Origin: Blastocatellia bacterium
Lineage (GTDB): Bacteria > Acidobacteriota > Blastocatellia > UBA7656
NCBI GenBank assembly: GCA_039648975.1
Contig: JBBWZK010000425.1
Coordinates: forward strand, 272-64,271
DNA: 64,000 nt
Direction: 5' to 3'
The position numbers and the translations under genes are program-made. How positions within the stretch are numbered: the first letter of the stretch is position 1; every line of letters begins with the position of its first letter. This document shows positions 38,647 to 51,450 of this stretch, in pieces. The notes beneath the pieces are model-generated. The model ran no database searches, had not been told where the DNA came from, and saw only the letters and a program-made list of their open reading frames with translations.

Positions 38647-38916
38647 ATGCAAGCGACGAAAGAACTGACGATATCGGAGGCACGCAAACAGTTGACCTCC
38701 TTGCCGGAAGAACTCGACCGCCATCCGAGGGCGGTGGCAGTCACCCGGCGCGGCAAGCCCGTGCTTGCGGTGTTGCCCTGGGATGTTTACGAGGCGATTG
38801 TCGAGACGCTGGAGATCATGGGAGACAATGAGTTGATGATTGATCTCCGGCAGGCGATACAAGAGGTTTCAGCCGGCCAGGCGATTGACTGGGAGCTTGC
38901 CTTAAAGGAGCTATGA
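38647..38916 (+). CDS. Phd/YefM-family antitoxin
   Basis: ISEARKQLTSLPEEL...VAVTRRGKPVLAVLPWDVYEAIVETLEIM. Overlaps the toxin start by 4 nt. Confidence 0.8.
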   Translation: MQATKELTISEARKQLTSLPEELDRHPRAVAVTRRGKPVLAVLPWDVYEAIVETLEIMGDNELMIDLRQAIQEVSAGQAIDWELALKEL

Positions 38917-39326
38917 CTTTGAGGCACCGGATTACGATTGCGCCGACTGCGTTGCGGCAGTTGAAGGGCATCACTGATCAGCGGGTCAGAGCGAAGATCA
39001 TCGAGACCATTAACCGGCTTGTGGATGAGCCTGAAAAGCAGGGCAAGCCGCTCGTCGGCGAACTGGCAGGCTACCGGAGCCTGCGCGCCGTCGGCCAGCG
39101 CTATCGCATCATCTACACGGTGAATCAGAATGAGATCACGGTGATTGTGGTTGCCGTGGGACTGCGGCGAGCCGGTAGCCATAGCGACATCTACGAACTG
39201 GCGCGCAAGCTCGTCGGGGTTGCTCTGAAGGGTGCGCCGACTGTTCCCACTTCACCTACAGCGGCGAAAAAGAAACCTGCTCAGGGTAAGCGTTCGGCAA
39301 AGAAAAAGCGCACGAATAAACGCTAA
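38913..39326 (+). CDS. RelE/ParE-family toxin with a Lys-rich C-terminal extension
   Basis: YRSLRAVGQRYRIIYTVNQNEITVIVVAVGLRR. Confidence 0.8.
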   Translation: MTLRHRITIAPTALRQLKGITDQRVRAKIIETINRLVDEPEKQGKPLVGELAGYRSLRAVGQRYRIIYTVNQNEITVIVVAVGLRRAGSHSDIYELARKLVGVALKGAPTVPTSPTAAKKKPAQGKRSAKKKRTNKR

Positions 39327-42555: not shown

Positions 42556-42963
42556 ATGAATGCCACACAGCCCGCTCTGCCCTTCGACTCATCGCCGCCA
42601 CTGGCTTCGCGCCGGCGCAAGCGCAACGCCAGCACGGAGGCGACAGCACAGGCGCGCGCCGACGCATTCGACAAGATCAAGGGCAAGCGCGGCAAGCGCC
42701 ATCTGCTGATTCTTCATGCGATCGCCCAGCACGGCCCGATGACGACGCGGCAGGTGTTGCGATGTCTGGTTGCGCAAGGCCATTTGCCACCAACTGCCGA
42801 GCGCAATCAAGTCAGCCCGCGTCTCTCAGAGATGGCAGAGGCTGGCTGCGTCGAGGCCCTCGACGAACTGCGCGTTGTCGGTGATGATACGCCGGCGACC
42901 GCCTGGAAGATTACACCGCGCGGGCAGTTGCTGATTGAAGATTCGGAGCCTGAGAGGAACTGA
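42556..42963 (+). CDS. winged-helix DNA-binding protein (MarR-like fold), hypothetical
   Basis: LILHAIAQHGPMTTRQVLRCLV...VSPRLSEMAEAGCVEAL. The stop overlaps the start of the Toprim protein gene. Confidence 0.6.
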   Translation: MNATQPALPFDSSPPLASRRRKRNASTEATAQARADAFDKIKGKRGKRHLLILHAIAQHGPMTTRQVLRCLVAQGHLPPTAERNQVSPRLSEMAEAGCVEALDELRVVGDDTPATAWKITPRGQLLIEDSEPERN

Positions 42964-44180
42964 TGGCTGCGGCTACGGCATCACTATACGCGCTCACTGA
43001 GCGCGACTATGAACGGCTTGCACGGTCGACGATCCCGCGCCCCATCGCTGATCAATTCTGCTTTCGAGTTGACGACATCGAAGGTGCCACGCAGGTCGGC
43101 CAGAGGCTGACCGCTGAACGCCTGATGCGCGGCATCATCTTCCGTTATTTCTCGCCCTGGGGCGGCCACGAGCGCGAGCGCCGGTTGCGCCGTGATGTGC
43201 CGGATGCGAGTGGCGATGGCAAATACATTGGCCCGCCTGACCGCCCGCCGCTGTTGTTCTTTCCCTTGCTTGTCAATGATGAACAATTCCGCGCCTGGCT
43301 TGAAGATTCAGCGATTCCGATTGTGTTTGTCGAAGGCGAGAAGAAGGCGCTCGCTCTGATGCGCATCGCTCTCGCCAATGCCGTTGGTGGCCGCCCGCCG
43401 TTCATCGTCATTGGGCTGGCCGGCGTCTGGTGTTGGAAGCGCAAAAACGGCCCGCTGCCTGACTTCGATCTGATTCCGTGGCGAAGCCGCCAGGTCTCCA
43501 TCTTCTTCGATTCCAATGTCCACACAAACGCCAAAGTCCGCAGCGCGCGACAGGCGCTTGCTGATGAACTACATCACAATCGCAGTGCAAAGGTCTTCTT
43601 TGTAGAGATGCCGCACGACTGTGAGCTGAACGGGCCGGATGATCTTGCTTACGCTCACGGTGATGAGGCCGTACTCGATTGCATTGAACAGGCAAAGCCG
43701 GCCATCAAGCCGACCGCGCAGCCGCAAAAAGAAACGATAGAAGAGCGCATCAGGCGCGGTGTTTTCCTTCGCGCCGCCGTCGCCAATGCACAGGCCGCGC
43801 CGGATGCGAGCGAACTGGCAAAGCAGACGCTCGGCGCGAAGGTGTGGCGGCGGCTGGCCGTGCTGTGGGCGCAGGCCGGCAAGCTCGAAGCCGAAGAGCG
43901 CGACCTGTTGTTCACCCTGCACGCGATGAGTGATGGCGAAGACGAGTTTGATTTTTATTACCTTGATCTTTACAGGCTGTTATTCCCATGCGACAGCAGC
44001 GAACTCGACGCCGATGGCCGGCTCACGAGCAGCGCCCGGCAAAGGATTCGCCGACGCTTCGACAATCTCGAAAGGGCCGAGCAGCAAGGCGGCATCCAAT
44101 TCGCAATAGTACGCAAAGGATCGAGAGACGATGACGGGCATCATTATCCCTCGCATATTCGTCTCTTGTCTCTTGGCTAG
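42963..44180 (+). CDS. Toprim-domain replication/primase-like protein (DUF3854-like)
   Basis: IPIVFVEGEKKALAL, VIGLAGVWCWK and QVSIFFDSNVHTN, a pattern typical of plasmid/ICE DUF3854 proteins. Confidence 0.7.
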   Translation: MAAATASLYALTERDYERLARSTIPRPIADQFCFRVDDIEGATQVGQRLTAERLMRGIIFRYFSPWGGHERERRLRRDVPDASGDGKYIGPPDRPPLLFFPLLVNDEQFRAWLEDSAIPIVFVEGEKKALALMRIALANAVGGRPPFIVIGLAGVWCWKRKNGPLPDFDLIPWRSRQVSIFFDSNVHTNAKVRSARQALADELHHNRSAKVFFVEMPHDCELNGPDDLAYAHGDEAVLDCIEQAKPAIKPTAQPQKETIEERIRRGVFLRAAVANAQAAPDASELAKQTLGAKVWRRLAVLWAQAGKLEAEERDLLFTLHAMSDGEDEFDFYYLDLYRLLFPCDSSELDADGRLTSSARQRIRRRFDNLERAEQQGGIQFAIVRKGSRDDDGHHYPSHIRLLSLG

Positions 44181-44204: not shown

Positions 44205-44663
44205 GTGACGGATCCACAATACAGCCGGAGCAAGCAAGCCGCCTTTGAGCGTGCGGTGGGAAAATTTGTTGAACTCAAAACTGGAAGCCCGGTCAAGCGC
44301 CGTCACAAGCCGCCGCGAAACCCCTTCAAAGAAATCAAAGACGGTTGGAGCCGAGTCGAGGGCGCTCTGCGTGCGACTGTCGAGCGGATGCGCGCCGAAG
44401 GGTACGAAGACTGGGCGATCTGGCAAGATTTGGAAAAGCACCTTCCGGCAGAGTTCATCGCTTTCCTACGGTCTGAATGCAGTGCAGCGCCGGTCGCCAA
44501 CGAGCCGGAAATTTGCGCCGCCGAGGTGAAACCTAATCATGAAGAGATAAAGGTTTCACCTGACCCGCCGGAGTCGTCTGCCGACCCCTCTGACGAGGCC
44601 CTAAAATCAGCCGAAAACAGGCCGGTTTCGGGGCAAATGCCAGGTTTCAATTTTGGGCATTAA
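44205..44663 (+). CDS. hypothetical protein (GTG start)
   Basis: 152-aa ORF downstream of the Toprim gene. Confidence 0.5.
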   Translation: MTDPQYSRSKQAAFERAVGKFVELKTGSPVKRRHKPPRNPFKEIKDGWSRVEGALRATVERMRAEGYEDWAIWQDLEKHLPAEFIAFLRSECSAAPVANEPEICAAEVKPNHEEIKVSPDPPESSADPSDEALKSAENRPVSGQMPGFNFGH

Positions 44664-44668
44664 TATAC

Positions 44669-44697
44669 TTGACTCATACGGGATTCTATAGTAGAAT
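44669..44697 (+). promoter_or_regulatory. strong sigma70-like promoter upstream of the transposase
   Basis: ttgact, exactly 17 nt, then tagaat. The -10 ends 7 nt before the ATG at 44705, which implies a leaderless or near-leaderless mRNA. Confidence 0.5.
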
Positions 44698-44704
44698 TTG
44701 AGGT

Positions 44705-45694
44705 ATGGAAAGCCAAGAGCGAAATTTCCCGCAGACCTTGTTAGAGGCGATTCGATATTTCAGCGATGCTGACAACTGCCTCAGCTTCATGATCAAGATT
44801 CGTTGGGCTGACGGCCCGACCTGCCCGCGCTGCGAATCCAAGCAAGCCAACTTCATCAAGACTCGCCGCCTGTGGATATGCAAGGACTGCAAAAAGAATT
44901 TCACGGTTAAGCAAGGGACTATCATGGAAGATAGTCCGATTGGTTTAGACAAGTGGCTCAGTGCGATATGGATGATTGCCAACGATAAGAATGGGATAAG
45001 CTCTTATGAAATCCATCGTGGTCTTGGCATCACTCAGAAGTCGGCATGGTTCCTGCTGCATAGAATCAGACTGGCAATGCAGAATGGCAGTCTTGAGAAA
45101 TTCTCTGGCCCAGTGGAAGCGGACGAAACCTATATCGGCGGTCTTGCGCGCAATATGCACAAGAGCAAGCGCGCAGCGAAGATCAAAGGGACTGGCGGCA
45201 GCGGTAAAGCCATCGTCATGGGCATTCTTGAGCGCAGCGGCGACGTTCGCACTAAAGTTATAGAGAATACCAGCCGTGAAACCTTGCATGGCGAGATACG
45301 GGCGCATGTCGCACTCGGTGCGGAAGTCCACACCGATGCGTGGCCAGCTTATCAAGGGCTTTCTCCTGATTATGTTCATCAGGTCATCAACCATGCTATT
45401 GAATACGTCAGAGGCCATGTTCATACCAATGGAATAGAGAACTTTTGGAGTTTGGTTTCGCGCTGTCTCAAAGGAACCTATGTTTCTGTGATGCCCTTTC
45501 ATCTGTTCCGCTACTTGGATGAGCAAGGCTTTCGATTTAATAACCGCAAGTTTAACGATTCTCAACGATTCCTGATGGTCTGTAATCAGATGTCAGGCCG
45601 TCGCCTCACCTACAAGCAACTCACAGGTAAAACGTTGATGCGGGATAGCAATAATCCGCGATTTGGATTCGTGGATACGCTATTTCCGCTATAG
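44705..45694 (+). CDS. IS1595-family (ISXO2-like) transposase
   Basis: N-terminal zinc ribbon CPRC...CKDC, an HTH region, and DETYIGG in the DDE domain. No terminal inverted repeats were found around it. Confidence 0.85.
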   Translation: MESQERNFPQTLLEAIRYFSDADNCLSFMIKIRWADGPTCPRCESKQANFIKTRRLWICKDCKKNFTVKQGTIMEDSPIGLDKWLSAIWMIANDKNGISSYEIHRGLGITQKSAWFLLHRIRLAMQNGSLEKFSGPVEADETYIGGLARNMHKSKRAAKIKGTGGSGKAIVMGILERSGDVRTKVIENTSRETLHGEIRAHVALGAEVHTDAWPAYQGLSPDYVHQVINHAIEYVRGHVHTNGIENFWSLVSRCLKGTYVSVMPFHLFRYLDEQGFRFNNRKFNDSQRFLMVCNQMSGRRLTYKQLTGKTLMRDSNNPRFGFVDTLFPL

Positions 45695-45703
45695 AGAGGA
45701 TTG

Positions 45704-45856
45704 ATGAAACCAATCATTCGACCACAGCCCGAAGACACGCGAACGCCTTACCAACGGTTTGAAGACCTCGCAAGGCAGGTGCTGACAGTGCCGAAGAAAG
45801 AAATAGATAAGAGGCAAGAAGAGTACGAACGAAAGAAGAAAAAGAAAAGGAAGTAA
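45704..45856 (+). CDS. small basic-tailed hypothetical protein (50 aa)
   Basis: Manual ORF MKPIIRPQPEDTRTPYQRFEDLARQVLTVPKKEIDKRQEEYERKKKKKRK with RBS agagagga. Confidence 0.3.
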   Translation: MKPIIRPQPEDTRTPYQRFEDLARQVLTVPKKEIDKRQEEYERKKKKKRK

Positions 45857-46303
45857 CTATTCACCTCGACCTTGTATTTTAATGATTAGTGGGTAATCTG
45901 CTATCTCTTGCCAATCATTGCCTTCAGCAACTTCCCTTAGAGACAGCTTCAACGACGCGTTTCCTAGAGGCATTACAGGAAATCCACCAATTTGCATCGT
46001 GGTTCGCATATTGGGTTTATCAGGTTGAAATTGAAACGGCAACGAGACATCAAGATAGGTTCGATCTTCCTTATTTAATTGGACACGCCCCTCAAACTGT
46101 TTATTTTCATCTCCATCTTCCATGCGATAAACCGCCAAAATATACCATCTAAAAGGTACAGCCCGATCAGAGTCCTCTTTGATTTCTAGCTCTGGGGGCA
46201 CTGCAAGATTTATAACCTCTAGAACAGAAATCAGAGAAACAGTATTCTCCTCCTGACTTATAATCACCCTTTCGCAAGGCAAGAAAACAAGAAGTCTTGG
46301 CAT
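45857..46303 (-). CDS. hypothetical protein (AT-rich cassette, gene 4)
   Basis: 148-aa ORF, MPRLLVFLPCERVIISQEENTVSLISVLEVI.... Lies in a visibly lower-GC segment. Confidence 0.6.
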   Translation of the reverse strand: MPRLLVFLPCERVIISQEENTVSLISVLEVINLAVPPELEIKEDSDRAVPFRWYILAVYRMEDGDENKQFEGRVQLNKEDRTYLDVSLPFQFQPDKPNMRTTMQIGGFPVMPLGNASLKLSLREVAEGNDWQEIADYPLIIKIQGRGE

Positions 46304-46315
46304 GATCTTTATTCT

Positions 46316-46714
46316 TTAGGCTGCTGTTTCCAGAGTTGCAGGCCCTCTCTGCAAAGGCGAATAGTTAAGGCGTATAGAACCCATTCTTTGGCCTACAGAA
46401 GCACTATTAGCAATAGATATGGTGATTCTATGGCTTACCTGAACTGGCAATACTTTTTGCGCAGATGGTACGTATGATTCAGACCACAGGCCAGCGCGCT
46501 TTAACTGGTCAACAGGATTCCAGTCTGCGGGCGGTCGAGTCGCATCGCTAAACCACACCATACCAGACTCTATCCATTTTTGTCGTAACTCAGCGTGGCT
46601 CACCTCATAATCGTCTAATTCAAATTCAACCCCACAGCTAGGGCAAATATAAAACCCCTGCGGAGGTCGAGCCATCTTATCGAATCCACAAACCGGACAA
46701 TTGTAATAAGGCAT
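46316..46714 (-). CDS. zinc-ribbon protein (CPxCG...CPxC), hypothetical (cassette gene 3)
   Basis: MPYYNCPVCGFDKMARPPQGFYICPSCGVEFELDDYE. Confidence 0.6.
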   Translation of the reverse strand: MPYYNCPVCGFDKMARPPQGFYICPSCGVEFELDDYEVSHAELRQKWIESGMVWFSDATRPPADWNPVDQLKRAGLWSESYVPSAQKVLPVQVSHRITISIANSASVGQRMGSIRLNYSPLQRGPATLETAA

Positions 46715-46723
46715 TGTTTCCTC

Positions 46724-47020
46724 CTATAGACAAGTATCAACGAAGTACTTACGCGGATTGCTTCTAGTAAGTCTAAAATACGTTCCTATAAATCCATCCG
46801 CGTGAAGAACTCCAATCTCACAAGTAACGTTATTGAATCGCACAGTAGCGCCATCTCTGGCTCTCACTCTTTCCTCTGTATTAGCATCTAATGGGCAATT
46901 CATAAATTCTATTGCAGCGGACTCATATTCGGCCTCGGTATCAAATGCAAATTCACGCCTCTCTATAATATGCCTTTTAAAATGGTTGGCCAAATCCATA
47001 AAGCCGTGTATAGGCGGCAC
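46724..47020 (-). CDS. small hypothetical protein (cassette gene 2)
   Basis: 98-aa ORF, HFKRHIIERREF...GATVRFNNVTCEIGVLHADGFIGTYF. 9 nt upstream of gene 3. Confidence 0.6.
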   Translation of the reverse strand: MPPIHGFMDLANHFKRHIIERREFAFDTEAEYESAAIEFMNCPLDANTEERVRARDGATVRFNNVTCEIGVLHADGFIGTYFRLTRSNPRKYFVDTCL

Positions 47021-47151
47021 TCCATTAGTCCTCCCTTATATTGTACTACCCTGGTATAGACATATAAAGCGGCGGCTATCATACTACGACGAGCGGGCGA
47101 AGTCTAGCGTAAGGTGAGTCACGGCAAAAAGCATGGGGACTAAATGCAAGC

Positions 47152-47901
47152 CTAGCCATGCAGTCTCAAATATGAGCCGTAGCTTATTGTTTTGACTCCG
47201 ATGATTAAATGTACGTCATGTATATTTTCTCCATCTGTCAATGGAGTTAACAAGTGATCCGTTTCAATGGTAAGTTTTGTAATCAGACTATCATCTTTTA
47301 GCAGGCAGTAAAAAGGGTCTTCGTCGCTTGTAGGAGTCTGACCAGCAACTTCCTGACACTCCTGCGGCATACGCAAGGCGTCAAGTAAAACCTTTATCCG
47401 ATTGTCAATGTCGCCACCGCCACTAACCAAATTACCCGGCTGGTCGCGTCTGAGAAACAGAACGTCAAGGGCGCATGCGTCCTCATCCCCGCGACCGCCG
47501 ATCAATGGCACAAATCGATAACCACAACGTGCATAATCATCGGCGAATATATCTATGAATAGCCGCGCATCGGGTCTATCACTTTCTCGATCTCGCAAAT
47601 ATCGGCGTAAACGCGGATCAGCCTTCCATAGCTCTCTCAGTTGCGGATGTAGGGTTTTTCTGATGCGATGCTTGTCTTCGTTCCGAGTTAGTGATCGACC
47701 AGCGGCTGGCAGTCTCCCCTGATAAACGAGGCGAAATTCCATATCAGTAGCGCCCTCAATTCCCGGCCACGAATCATAAACAAACTCCTGACGCTGCGGC
47801 CATTGGGATACTGGCACATCTACAGAATATGAGTCAAGTATATCATTGCCCAATTTTGATACCTGGGAAATGCCTGCATCCTCTGTAGATGCAACAGACA
47901 A
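47152..47901 (-). CDS. RusA-like endonuclease-fold protein (cassette gene 1; start uncertain, TTG 47901 or ATG 47742)
   Basis: GGGDIDNRIKVLLDALR...LLKDDSLITKLTIE matches the RusA DxDNxxKxxxDAL...DD signature. Confidence 0.6.
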   Translation of the reverse strand: MSVASTEDAGISQVSKLGNDILDSYSVDVPVSQWPQRQEFVYDSWPGIEGATDMEFRLVYQGRLPAAGRSLTRNEDKHRIRKTLHPQLRELWKADPRLRRYLRDRESDRPDARLFIDIFADDYARCGYRFVPLIGGRGDEDACALDVLFLRRDQPGNLVSGGGDIDNRIKVLLDALRMPQECQEVAGQTPTSDEDPFYCLLKDDSLITKLTIETDHLLTPLTDGENIHDVHLIIGVKTISYGSYLRLHG

Positions 47902-47931
47902 TTTTGCGGATTTTCAGAAATCCGCAAAAAT
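47901..47931. promoter_or_regulatory. 12-bp perfect hairpin/palindrome in a divergent intergenic region
   Basis: ttttgcggattt tcag aaatccgcaaaa. There is no U-tract on either strand, so an operator is more likely than a terminator. Confidence 0.5.
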
Positions 47932-48031
47932 CAGCTACCAATCGCGCGCGCCCTGAAATGCCCGGCGGATCGCCGCCAATCCGGTGTCCATCAGCGAATC
48001 GTCGAGTGAAGCTTGATTATGCGGGGTGGTG

Positions 48032-48943
48032 ATGACAGCAGCAGTTTATGAGTCTAGTCCTATAAAGCGAAAGCGGCGCGGCTTCGATGCCATTGCGACG
48101 GTGCGCGACGCGCTTTATGACGTGCTGTCGGCAGAGCACCCGATGACCGTGCGCCAGGTCTTCTACCGGCTGGTGAGCGCCGGCGCCATTGAAAAGACGG
48201 AGGCCGAATATAAATCAACCGTCTGCCGCTTGCTTGGCCGCATGCGGCGCGAGGGCGTCGTTCCGTTTGGCTGGATCGCTGACAGCACGCGATGGATGCG
48301 CAAGCCGTGCACCTTTTCAACCCTCGAATCAGCGCTCGAACTGACGGCGCAAACCTACCGCCGGGCGATGTGGGACAATCAGCCGGTCTACGTCGAAGTG
48401 TGGCTCGAGAAAGATGCGCTGGCCGGCGTGCTGATGGATGAAACCGAGAAGTGGGACGTGCCGCTGATGGTGACGCGCGGCTATCCGAGCCTGTCTTATC
48501 TCTACTCGGCAGCCGAGCAGATCACGGCGATTGAAAAGCCGGCTTACCTGTATTACTTCGGCGATTACGACCCGTCGGGCGTAGACATCACGCGCGCCGT
48601 CGAGAGCGGCATCCGAGAATTTGCCCCTGACGCGGAGATTTATTTCGAGCGCGTCGCGGTGACGCCGGCGCAGATCAGGCAGTATGGATTGCTCACGCGA
48701 CCGACGAAGAAAACCGACTCGCGCAGTAAGAACTTTGAGGGCGAGAGCGTTGAAGTCGATGCGATCCCGCCAGCGATGCTTCGCCAGATGGCCAGAGAAT
48801 GTATTGAGCAACACATTGACGAAGACGCGCTGGAACGCCTGCACCTTGCCGAGCAGTCCGAGCGCGAGAGTATGCAGATCATCGCCGATGCGTGGCGCGA
48901 CGGCAGGCTGCGCTACGTGCCAGAAGAAATCGGTGAATCGTGA
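48032..48943 (+). CDS. stand-alone Spo11/topoisomerase VI subunit A-like protein (winged helix + Toprim)
   Basis: MTVRQVFYRLV resembles the R-x-(I/V)-(F/Y)-Y catalytic-Tyr motif. VEVWLEKDALAGVL supplies the Toprim Glu. TRGYPS and YYFGDYDPSGVDI match DxDPxG. Confidence 0.7.
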   Translation: MTAAVYESSPIKRKRRGFDAIATVRDALYDVLSAEHPMTVRQVFYRLVSAGAIEKTEAEYKSTVCRLLGRMRREGVVPFGWIADSTRWMRKPCTFSTLESALELTAQTYRRAMWDNQPVYVEVWLEKDALAGVLMDETEKWDVPLMVTRGYPSLSYLYSAAEQITAIEKPAYLYYFGDYDPSGVDITRAVESGIREFAPDAEIYFERVAVTPAQIRQYGLLTRPTKKTDSRSKNFEGESVEVDAIPPAMLRQMARECIEQHIDEDALERLHLAEQSERESMQIIADAWRDGRLRYVPEEIGES

Positions 48944-49100
48944 TGGAAGCAAGTATGAAAACTGTTTTGACAACGCCACAGCCGGTCGCCGTGCAATGCC
49001 GCAACTGCCGGCGCGCGCTTTCGCTGGGCGCGAGTGGCCGCGCCTGGTGCTATCGCTGCTGTCTATGGACTGAGCTTCAAAGTGTGAATGAGGTTTGAAG

Positions 49101-49460
49101 ATGAATGAACCATCAGCGTCAGATCGAATCCGTCTGCTCGAAAAGGAACTGGCAGAGATGCGCGTGCTGCTCACCGAAGTGGCGCGCAAGCAAGCCTGGC
49201 CTCAGTATCTCACTCGCAACGAGCTTGCCGAGTTGTTGCAGATCAGCCCACGCACGATTGACGATTGGGTGAGCGAGGATCGTATTCCATACCACAAAGC
49301 CGGAAACTCGACGCGCTTCCTCATCAGCGAGATCGTGCAGTGGACAGCCGGGCGATGGAGTCCGGCGAAGCAAGCCGCGCCGGCGAAGCCAAAGAGCAGA
49401 CCTGCAAGAAAGCGCCGTGCGCGTACCGGGGATGACAAACAGCAACTGCGGGCCTTATGA
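49101..49460 (+). CDS. xis: excisionase-family HTH protein
   Basis: LTRNELAELLQISPRTIDDWVSEDRIPYHKAGNSTRFLISEIVQW. Directly upstream of the integrase gene, which overlaps it. Confidence 0.75.
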   Translation: MNEPSASDRIRLLEKELAEMRVLLTEVARKQAWPQYLTRNELAELLQISPRTIDDWVSEDRIPYHKAGNSTRFLISEIVQWTAGRWSPAKQAAPAKPKSRPARKRRARTGDDKQQLRAL

Positions 49461-49507
49461 TGTCGCCGCTTCCAAACAGGCGGCTGCAACCGAGATGGAG
49501 GCAATCC

Positions 49508-50581
49508 ATGTCAGTCAGAAAACGCAAGCACCGATGGCACTACGATTTTCAGATTTGCAGCGTCCGCCATCGCGGTGCGATTCCAGAGGCACGCAACAAA
49601 GCCCAGGCCGAGCGCGCCGAAGCCAGGATCAAGCTCGATCTTTTCGAGCAGAGATTTGGTGACGGCATCAGCAAGAACTTCGCCGAGTTCATCGCCGAAG
49701 TATATGAGCCGGCGGCAAAGTCAAAACGGAGCTATCACACGGCGGAAAATCTTCACATTCGCACGGTGACGGCTCACTTCAAAACTTACGCGCTCGCCGA
49801 CATCAGCCTGATGGCCGTCGAGCGGTTCAAAAGAGAGCGGCTTGCCACGCCAGTGCAGAGTAGTGGCAAGCCGCGCACACCGGCGACGGTCAATCGCGAG
49901 TTGGGGGTTCTATCGCAGATCCTTGCCATGGCCTGTGATAACGGGTTGCTGCAATCGAACCCGTGCAGCAAGGTCAGGCGGCTGCGCGAAGACAACACCC
50001 GGACGCGCTATTTGACCGAAGCCGAAGAAGAGCAATTGATGACCGCAATCACCAAACCCTATGAGCGATTGCGGCCGCTGATCATTCTCGCGTTCGGCAC
50101 CGGCATGCGGCAAGGCGAGATTGCCGGCCTGACCTGGCCGCAGGTCGACTGGCGGCGCAATCTCATCATTGTGACGAACACCAAGAGTGGCGATGATCGC
50201 ACGATCCCGATGAATGAAACCGTCAAGGATTTGCTCGTCAGGCTCTGGCGCGAGTCCGACCAGTTGAACGCGAAGGTCTTCCAGATAAGCGCCGACGTGG
50301 TCTGTACCACATTCCACAGGCTTGCCCAGCGCGCAAAGCTTATAGACTTCCGCTTTCACGACCTGCGGCACACGTTCGCAACAAGGCTCGCGCCGCACAC
50401 TGACGTCTTTACGCTGGCCGCGCTATTAGGCCATAAGACGCTGGCCATGACGGCGCGTTACACGCACCCGACAGACGATGGCAAGCGCCGGGCAATCGCT
50501 GTTTTGAATACCCTGGCGCGCAAAGCTGGTCAAGAAAATGTCACAATTGACTTTCCGGCACAGGTAAGTAAGGCCGGCTAG
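49508..50581 (+). CDS. int: tyrosine-type site-specific integrase
   Basis: ATG at 49508 follows ggagg. C-terminal catalytic signature FHDLRHTFATRLA...LLGHKTLAMTARYTH. The ORF also opens earlier, at 49457. Confidence 0.9.
   Translation: MSVRKRKHRWHYDFQICSVRHRGAIPEARNKAQAERAEARIKLDLFEQRFGDGISKNFAEFIAEVYEPAAKSKRSYHTAENLHIRTVTAHFKTYALADISLMAVERFKRERLATPVQSSGKPRTPATVNRELGVLSQILAMACDNGLLQSNPCSKVRRLREDNTRTRYLTEAEEEQLMTAITKPYERLRPLIILAFGTGMRQGEIAGLTWPQVDWRRNLIIVTNTKSGDDRTIPMNETVKDLLVRLWRESDQLNAKVFQISADVVCTTFHRLAQRAKLIDFRFHDLRHTFATRLAPHTDVFTLAALLGHKTLAMTARYTHPTDDGKRRAIAVLNTLARKAGQENVTIDFPAQVSKAG
50528..50545 (+). repeat. 18-bp perfect repeat (ggtcaagaaaatgtcaca), right copy, inside the int 3' end
   Basis: Identical to 19453-19470. 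Confidence 0.7.
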
Positions 50582-50847: not shown

Positions 50848-51450
50848 ATGGCAGAAATCCGCGAAACGCATACCGTAGTTGATGAAGTCCCGGTTGAGCG
50901 CCGGACGGGGATTGAAGATGATTACCCGCCGGTTGTCTATGAGCGGCGCGGCTTGTCTGGCGGAGCAATAGCCGCTCTGGTGATTGCCGGGATTGCCGCT
51001 GCCATACTCATCACGTTTTTGATACTGAATAATCAACAGCGGGATCATGACCAGGAGATGGCGCTGGAACGGGCGCGCGCCGATGCGGCTCAAAGGGCTG
51101 CTGCGCAATCGCCAACCCCAACGCAACCGCCACAGCAGCCGCCCGTGGTTGTTATGCAGCCATCGCAGCCTACAGTGGTTCCCGTGCCTGTGCCTTCACA
51201 ATCCGCGCCGGCTGCTGCGCCGTCGACGAGTGCGCCTTCGAGCGTCAGCGTCGAAGTTGACGTGACGACGAAACTGCTCGATGACGCGGACCTGCGCACT
51301 CACCCTATAGATGTGAAGGTGAACAACGGCACGGCAACCTTGAGCGGTGAACTGCCGAGCGAAGAGATGAAGGCGAAGGCTGAACGGGTCGCCATGTCGG
51401 TCAAAGGAGTTCGCCGCGTCAAGAACAATATCACCGTGAAATCCGACTAA
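50848..51450 (+). CDS. BON-domain membrane protein
   Basis: ATG at 50848 follows aagaggag. TM segment, P/Q-rich linker, and a C-terminal BON domain (IDVKVNNGTATLSGELPSEEMKAKAERVAMSVKGVRRVKNNITV). Confidence 0.8.
   Translation: MAEIRETHTVVDEVPVERRTGIEDDYPPVVYERRGLSGGAIAALVIAGIAAAILITFLILNNQQRDHDQEMALERARADAAQRAAAQSPTPTQPPQQPPVVVMQPSQPTVVPVPVPSQSAPAAAPSTSAPSSVSVEVDVTTKLLDDADLRTHPIDVKVNNGTATLSGELPSEEMKAKAERVAMSVKGVRRVKNNITVKSD

Follow-up and report, generated by a model that had tools for sequence, protein, structure and literature searches.

An IS1595-family insertion sequence with a RusA-like gene directly upstream of a Mini-A gene in a Blastocatellia integrative element

A RusA-like gene within an insertion sequence, head to head with Mini-A

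We analyzed a 64,000-nucleotide stretch (hereafter, the window) of contig JBBWZK010000425.1 from the metagenome-assembled genome of a Blastocatellia bacterium (Acidobacteriota), in which two genes predicted to act on DNA lie head to head. The first (48032..48943, + strand) encodes a stand-alone protein of 303 amino acids (aa) that resembles the DNA-cleaving A subunit of topoisomerase VI (Topo VI) and Spo11, and that belongs to the published Mini-A family. The second (47152..47817, − strand) encodes a protein resembling the Holliday-junction resolvase RusA. A previous interpretation of the window, based on its letters and open reading frames (ORFs; hereafter, the sequence-only reading), had joined the two into a divergent module with a shared hairpin operator. 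Our analysis places the RusA-like gene, and the operon that it heads, inside an insertion sequence (IS) of the IS1595 family that borders the Mini-A gene.

The IS spans 44656..47850 (3,195 bp) and encodes a transposase and four passenger ORFs; its limits are given by terminal repeats, a target-site duplication and base composition. The left terminal inverted repeat, GGCATTAATATACTTGACTCATA (44656..44678, + strand), was found by repeat search and checked directly, and the right one (47828..47850, − strand), whose reverse complement is GGCAATGATATACTTGACTCATA, agrees with it at 21 of 23 bases. Both 23-bp repeats start with GGC, and a perfect 8-bp duplication, CAATTTTG, is located exactly at their outer ends (left copy 44648..44655, right copy 47851..47858, both verified by script). 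The content of guanine and cytosine (GC) is 43-51% over approximately 44.5-48.0 kb, compared with 58-60% in the flanks, and the Mini-A gene lies in the high-GC part. The transposase (44705..45694, + strand, 329 aa) is intact, with a zinc ribbon and a DDE domain recognized by Pfam (Zn_ribbon_IS1595, E = 2.7e-13; DDE_Tnp_IS1595, E = 7e-40). The hallmarks of the IS1595 family are 8-bp duplications, GG termini and a transposase with a zinc finger and a DDE domain (Siguier et al. 2009, as summarized in PMC8101967 and PMC12561309), and the element shares all of these. It differs from the published description in size and content, with 3.2 kb and four passenger ORFs as opposed to the usual single gene, the transposase (PMC8101967). 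We therefore assign it to the IS1595 family, as a member that carries passengers.

The right end of the IS cuts through the RusA-like ORF as it is read at its longest (47152-47901, − strand; 249 aa, including GGGDIDNRIKVLLDAL...LLKDD). This ORF is a chimera whose first 17 codons (47901-47851) fall outside the IS, and so does the publicly annotated start of the gene. The true start must fall within the IS, probably at GTG 47817 (221 aa) or at ATG 47742 (196 aa). Because it lies inside the IS, the 125-bp divergent intergenic region that the two genes had been thought to share does not exist as such; the interval is made of the right terminal repeat (47828-47850), the right copy of the duplication (47851-47858) and a stretch of host-element DNA measuring 173 bp. 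The remaining three passenger ORFs were called on the − strand at 45857..47020, and encode 98 aa (46724-47020), 132 aa with a zinc ribbon (46316-46714) and 148 aa (45857-46303).

Removing the IS in silico restored an ORF of the host element. Its 5′ part (44205..44655, + strand, verified by script), read as 152 aa in the interrupted state, resumes at 47859 and ends at 47956, giving 182 aa across the reconstructed junction ...GCCAGGTTTCAATTTTGATACCTGGGAAATGCC.... The restored ORF stops 75 bp before Mini-A and runs in the same direction, and the original arrangement would therefore have been co-directional. We consider it very likely that an IS1595-family element with a RusA-like gene inserted just upstream of the Mini-A gene of an integrative element, and that the head-to-head arrangement is accidental. 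By transposition, the element would have entered the 182-aa ORF near its 3′ end, duplicating CAATTTTG, and would have brought along its own transposase, a gene for a putative RusA-fold nuclease just inside the opposite repeat, and then three unrelated passenger ORFs. The divergent orientation and the seemingly shared intergenic region would both be due to this insertion.

Several points weigh against this interpretation or limit its reach. We found no uninterrupted ("empty-site") copy of the host element, and the pre-insertion sequence is a reconstruction. The restored 182-aa ORF has no detectable homologs or family matches and may not be a real gene. The IS could have a regulatory effect on Mini-A, either by outward transcription or by the loss of read-through from upstream. 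Finally, the biochemical activity of Mini-A and the nuclease activity of the RusA-like protein are both predictions from conserved residues and fold.

The competing explanation holds that Mini-A and the RusA-like protein form a break-and-resolve module, serving as a recombination or excision helper, a defense system or an addiction system, under a shared palindromic operator. It can point to the adjacent and divergent genes in the window, to the nuclease-type catalytic residues conserved in both proteins, and to the statistically non-random palindrome between them. We surveyed the neighborhoods of both families, using 80 genome loci of the RusA-like gene with up to 10 kb of flank and 81 metagenome loci of Mini-A (82 sequences surveyed). 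Mini-A was found within 10 kb of the RusA-like gene in 0 of the 80 loci; at the 81 Mini-A loci, neither a RusA-like gene nor an IS1595 transposase was present in any. Homologs of the two genes thus never co-localized in 161 independent loci, which refutes the divergent two-gene module by the standard that the sequence-only reading had set for itself. Also against it are the location of the RusA-like gene within an IS with inverted repeats and target duplication, and the discordant GC content. We regard a break-and-resolve module as extremely improbable. What looked like a system of a double-strand-break enzyme plus a junction resolvase appears to be an artefact of IS insertion. The case shows that, before a divergent gene pair of a mobile element is labeled a module, it is advisable to look for transposon ends and for breaks in base composition.

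The palindrome itself is real: a perfect 12+12 hairpin with a 4-nt loop, TTTTGCGGATTT-TCAG-AAATCCGCAAAA, lies at 47902..47929, and by our own estimate about 0.02 such hairpins are expected by chance in 64 kb. It is host-element DNA outside the IS, within the 3′ end of the restored ORF and 44 bp beyond the right copy of the target duplication. The palindrome is unique in the window, in which its half-site shows no enrichment (10 matches, 6.7 expected), and the 157-nt region upstream of Mini-A shows no unusual RNA stability (z = −1.5). A perfect hairpin of at least 9 bp was found upstream of Mini-A in only 4 of 65 other loci, with unrelated sequences. The proposal of a shared or repeated operator was rejected on these grounds, namely the unenriched half-site, the ordinary RNA stability and the absence of the palindrome at other Mini-A genes. 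Whichever strand is read, the stem has a run of T before it and a run of A after it, and the palindrome is therefore not a canonical terminator; a simple terminator scan flagged the − strand weakly. The right arm recurs at 14 of 15 positions at 50852-50866, at the start of a BON-domain gene downstream of the integrase, which is at chance level for the region searched.

Several smaller features of the IS ends were also recorded. A good inward promoter-like site, TTGACT-17-TAGAAT (44669-44697), ends 8 bp before the transposase ATG, and the conserved ACTTGAC of the terminal repeat forms its −35 box; a similar −10 box is missing from the right end. The repeat finder reported an inverted repeat of 47 nt, since the target of the IS is itself an imperfect palindrome: the outer 16 bp on each side (44632-44647 and 47859-47874) read GGCAAATGCCAGGTTT and ATACCTGGGAAATGCC, and CAATTTTG stands between them in the target. 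This longer repeat was rejected as the IS end, as related copies place the ends at the inner 23 bp.

The Mini-A protein and its host element

The product of 48032-48943 was identified by profile matching, motifs, structure prediction and structure comparison. It matched PHROG 6247 ("DNA topoisomerase", a 303-position profile) over its full length with E = 2.3e-61. Full-length homologs with 31-36% identity were found in 79 phage records, including Xylella phages Salvo and Sano, Listeria phage LWP01 and Pseudomonas phage JG054, as well as Salmonella and Flavobacterium phages; the phage proteins (293-301 aa) align with the 303-aa protein from end to end. Its AlphaFold2 model has a mean pLDDT (predicted local distance difference test) of 86, and a Foldseek search of the PDB ranked Methanosarcina mazei Top6A first (probability 1.0), followed by Methanocaldococcus jannaschii Top6A (best fold matches 9o7o_A, 9o0g_A and 1d3y). 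The Spo11/Topo VI-A hallmarks noted by the sequence-only reading, RQVFY, EKDA and YFGDYDPSG, are indeed present, in a protein of 303 aa.

The residues expected to be catalytic are conserved among homologs. R41 and Y45 of the 5Y-CAP motif (R41-Q-V-F-Y45) and E126, D178, D180 and G183 of the Toprim domain (the last three within D178-Y-D180-P-S-G183) are invariant in an alignment of 13 sequences, three of them from phages, and in 39 close relatives. Near the C-terminus, the window clade has a T2BI-like box, S239-V-E-V-D-A-I245, which corresponds to SWELDAL in phage members; S239, E241, D243 and A244 are invariant, and the signature tryptophan is replaced by valine throughout the window clade. Since the tyrosine, the glutamate and the DxD residues are conserved, we propose that Mini-A would bind DNA as a dimer and may cut it, in a Mg2+-dependent manner, through a 5′-phosphotyrosyl link.

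Mini-A was defined by Takahashi et al. (2019) as a protein of ~300 aa that combines a 5Y-CAP domain that lacks its N-terminal, B-binding part with a Toprim domain. Its hallmarks are Rxx[F/Y]Y, E plus DxDxxG, and a C-terminal T2BI box, xWELDAL; it occurs without a B subunit and is encoded in viruses or proviruses (PMC7671362). The window protein agrees with this description in its length, its RxxFY and E plus DxDxxG motifs, the lack of a B subunit nearby and its location on a mobile element. It departs from it in the T2BI box, where SVEVDAI keeps the E, D and A of xWELDAL and exchanges W for V, in its low identity to phage members (the 31-36% given above), and in its host element, which has an integrase, an excisionase and a toxin-antitoxin pair and no virion genes among the ORFs tested. 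Compared with Topo VI A and Spo11, it shares the two-domain fold and the catalytic residues, but it is ~100 residues shorter, has no match to Pfam TP6A_N at E ≤ 0.1, and has no Top6B/GHKL partner in the element. The earlier claim that an ATPase partner is missing from the whole window holds for the part that we covered: no GHKL ATPase or B subunit was found among the ORFs of the host element, to which the scan was confined.

Other profile libraries detected mainly the Toprim part. Pfam and NCBIfam gave sub-threshold Toprim matches only (DUF2399, E = 3e-4; TIGR02679). Similarly, the PADLOC models of JetD matched weakly and below threshold, in the Toprim part only (E = 2e-4 to 1e-2). The likeness to JetD/MksG of the Wadjet system is confined to this domain; the N-terminal domain is a different one, and no JetABC/SMC-type genes were found among the ORFs of the element. 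A defense-system reading was rejected on these sub-threshold JetD matches and on the lack of any PADLOC match to the RusA-like protein and its fellow passengers in the IS. The 303-aa protein is Mini-A, that is, a Topo VI-A/Spo11-type 5Y-CAP and Toprim protein without a B subunit, and a somewhat divergent new member of a family that has already been published and named (PMC7671362). The Mini-A family is large (6,286 matches among 8,000 candidates scored), and the window clade is abundant in soil metagenomes.

In the host element, a string of co-directional genes surrounds Mini-A: a weakly Replic_Relax-like ORF, a DUF3854 protein (42963..44180, + strand), the 182-aa ORF, Mini-A, an excisionase-like gene and a tyrosine integrase. 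The excisionase-like gene (HTH_17; 49095-49460, + strand) directly follows Mini-A, and the integrase (49457-50581, + strand) comes next, in line with the xis/int neighbors previously noticed at this position. The element also encodes a Toprim protein, and no virion genes were found among its ORFs that we tested. We did not find its ends: there was no tRNA and there were no convincing direct repeats, and the left boundary was not located. In the same integrative element, a PhD-like antitoxin ORF (38647-38916) overlaps a gene for a ParE/RelE-type toxin (38913-39326; Pfam ParE_toxin, E = 1e-9).

Across the Mini-A survey, the most common neighbor was a tyrosine integrase (13 of the 82 sequences), followed by a Toprim primase-like protein (9), a primase-polymerase (prim-pol; 5), an OB-fold protein (5) and serine recombinases (3 loci). 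No fixed partner, or candidate "Mini-B", was found across the 81 loci. In phages, the Mini-A genes are located in replication and recombination modules. No report on Mini-A function was found in the literature searched. Because its relatives sit among primase, prim-pol and integrase genes, Mini-A probably serves the replication or recombination of its host element. The fact that the clade adjoins integrases and primases, and not virion genes, narrows down where its role should be sought.

The closest relative of the window protein (84% identity, locus L081) lacks a RusA-like gene in its neighborhood; there, a co-directional gene overlaps the start of Mini-A. We also observed three elements, unrelated to one another, in which genes for excision or integration are the immediate neighbors of Mini-A. 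In Listeria phage LWP01 (L163, 3720-4852), it comes directly after the excisionase gene; in the window (48032-50581), it is followed by the excisionase-like gene and the tyrosine integrase; and in L081 (7478-10131), by a serine recombinase.

A RusA-fold family recurrently paired with IS1595-type transposases

The assignment of the passenger gene at 47152..47817 draws on structure prediction and comparison, a weak Pfam match and conserved residues. The AlphaFold2 model has a mean pLDDT of 85. Its top Foldseek match in the PDB was Escherichia coli RusA (1q8r_B; probability 0.85, template modeling score 0.55 normalized to RusA), and the named proteins among the top 50 matches in BFVD were almost all RusA resolvases (best E = 9e-4, probability 1.0), with Foldseek E-values that are modest. 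The Pfam RusA profile (PF05866) scored 12.8 bits, below its cutoff of 22.8; 27 of 37 family members give the same weak match, and the best of the 37 reaches E = 0.021. With hhalign, GGDIDNRIKVLLDAL was aligned with RRDLDNLQKAAFDAL of E. coli RusA, whose query sequence was checked against 1q8r. The alignment covered only the 17-18-residue catalytic motif, at a probability of 6-14%, whether RusA was used alone or as a 19-sequence alignment; the latter is narrow, as the IMG/VR scan gave only copies that are 98-99% identical and the protein search none below 69% identity. Neither phmmer with the protein nor hmmsearch with the family profile found RusA among PDB sequences.

Within the family alignment, G162-G-D164-x-D166-N167-R168 is invariant, and K170, D203 and D204 each occur in 90% of members or more. 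In the alignment with E. coli RusA, the counterparts of D164, D166 and K170 are D70, D72 and K76, and D203/D204 lie at the end of the next β-strand, like D90/D91 of RusA (WLDD), an equivalence drawn by inspection. The catalytic residues of E. coli RusA are D70, D72, K76 and D91, of which D70 also appears in titles of PDB entries. The protein shares with RusA (PF05866; PDB 1q8r and 2h8c) the fold, the aligned motif and a β-strand ending in DD. In contrast to the 120 aa of RusA, it has 196-249 aa; it is extended at the N-terminus and contains two insertions, and its gene resides in an insertion sequence, whereas RusA belongs to a phage recombination module. We class the product of the 249-aa ORF as a distant RusA-fold protein, RusA-like by predicted fold and motif, and not a demonstrated member of PF05866. 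The earlier assignment to RusA holds for the fold and the catalytic motif, while the Pfam score is sub-threshold and the start and extent of the ORF were wrong.

None of the profile libraries searched (Pfam, NCBIfam, PADLOC and PHROG) names this protein, and its 416 word-indexed relatives have no Pfam domain. An exhaustive profile search showed that the family comprises 3,034 clusters at 50% identity. In 30 of the 80 surveyed loci, a transposase of the IS1595 type lies 42-2,400 bp from the RusA-like gene, either convergent with it or upstream in tandem, and any other neighbor is shared by four loci at most. None of the 80 loci has a counterpart of the three remaining passenger ORFs of the IS in the window. 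Many of the pairs are bracketed by inverted repeats of the same type as in the window, GG..AT.AT.TACTTGAC, and seven of them (L017, L045, L055, L061, L064, L069 and L078) are flanked by perfect 8-bp duplications of different targets. The searched literature, which included neither ISfinder nor Siguier et al. (2009), yielded no paper linking RusA to IS1595. What is new here, to a modest degree, is that an unannotated RusA-like family is repeatedly linked with elements of the IS1595 type.

This pairing raises the question of what the RusA-like protein does for the element. It may be an accessory nuclease of an IS1595 subgroup, in which case it would act on branched or four-way intermediates of transposition, or on cointegrates to resolve them. 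TnsA in Tn7 provides an analogy, as a second nuclease in a DDE transposon. In support of such a role, this is the only recurrent non-transposase gene in these IS1595-type elements. In paired copies, it is always inside the inverted repeats and usually starts ~10-100 bp from one end; it accompanies transposases that differ among themselves by up to 74%; and its catalytic Asp and Lys residues vary little or not at all within the family. However, members of the IS1595 family usually have a single gene (PMC8101967), so the RusA-like gene is not generally required. Of the 53 loci in which the flanks reach 3 kb or more in each direction, a transposase is present in 22 and missing from 31. Furthermore, the divergence of transposase and passenger is not significantly correlated across the 30 copies (Mantel r = 0.14, p = 0.10), and co-evolution of the two was rejected on this result; in the closest pairs, the passenger diverges far faster than the transposase. 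We consider an accessory-nuclease role rather unlikely. If the RusA-like protein does act in transposition, it would be a new kind of accessory enzyme for DDE transposons.

Alternatively, the gene may be ordinary cargo, such as a repair, anti-phage or anti-defense nuclease, which would be dispensable for transposition and repeatedly captured by, or swapped between, IS copies. Its fast divergence, uncoupled from that of the transposase, agrees with this explanation, as do the many solitary copies and the additional, variable cargo that separates the RusA-like gene from the transposase in different copies. Yet it has no match to a PADLOC defense model, and a fixed place by one inverted repeat across such deep transposase divergence would be unusual for casual cargo. 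We find the cargo explanation plausible without being probable. A bolder proposal, which we judge unlikely, is that the RusA-fold family is a dedicated accessory nuclease of an IS1595 subgroup and that the Mini-A clade with SVEVDAI may mark plasmid-like integrative elements and not viruses. Were the first part of this true, a DDE insertion sequence would have recruited an enzyme of the Holliday-junction-resolvase type as a second catalytic component.

Individual copies add further observations. Between L022 and L032, the transposase differs by 1% and the RusA-like passenger by 15%; between L047 and L069, the corresponding values are 16% and 51%. Five loci (L012, L031, L041, L076 and L080) have no transposase near the RusA-like gene, yet a terminal repeat of the IS type is found where the gene starts or a short way upstream; these loci may be IS remnants or truncated assemblies. 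L080 and L023 come from one metagenome-assembled genome and are 100% identical over 663 bp, from the exact IS end to the end of the L080 contig, which indicates two copies of an IS bearing the RusA-like gene, at which the assembly broke because of the repeat.

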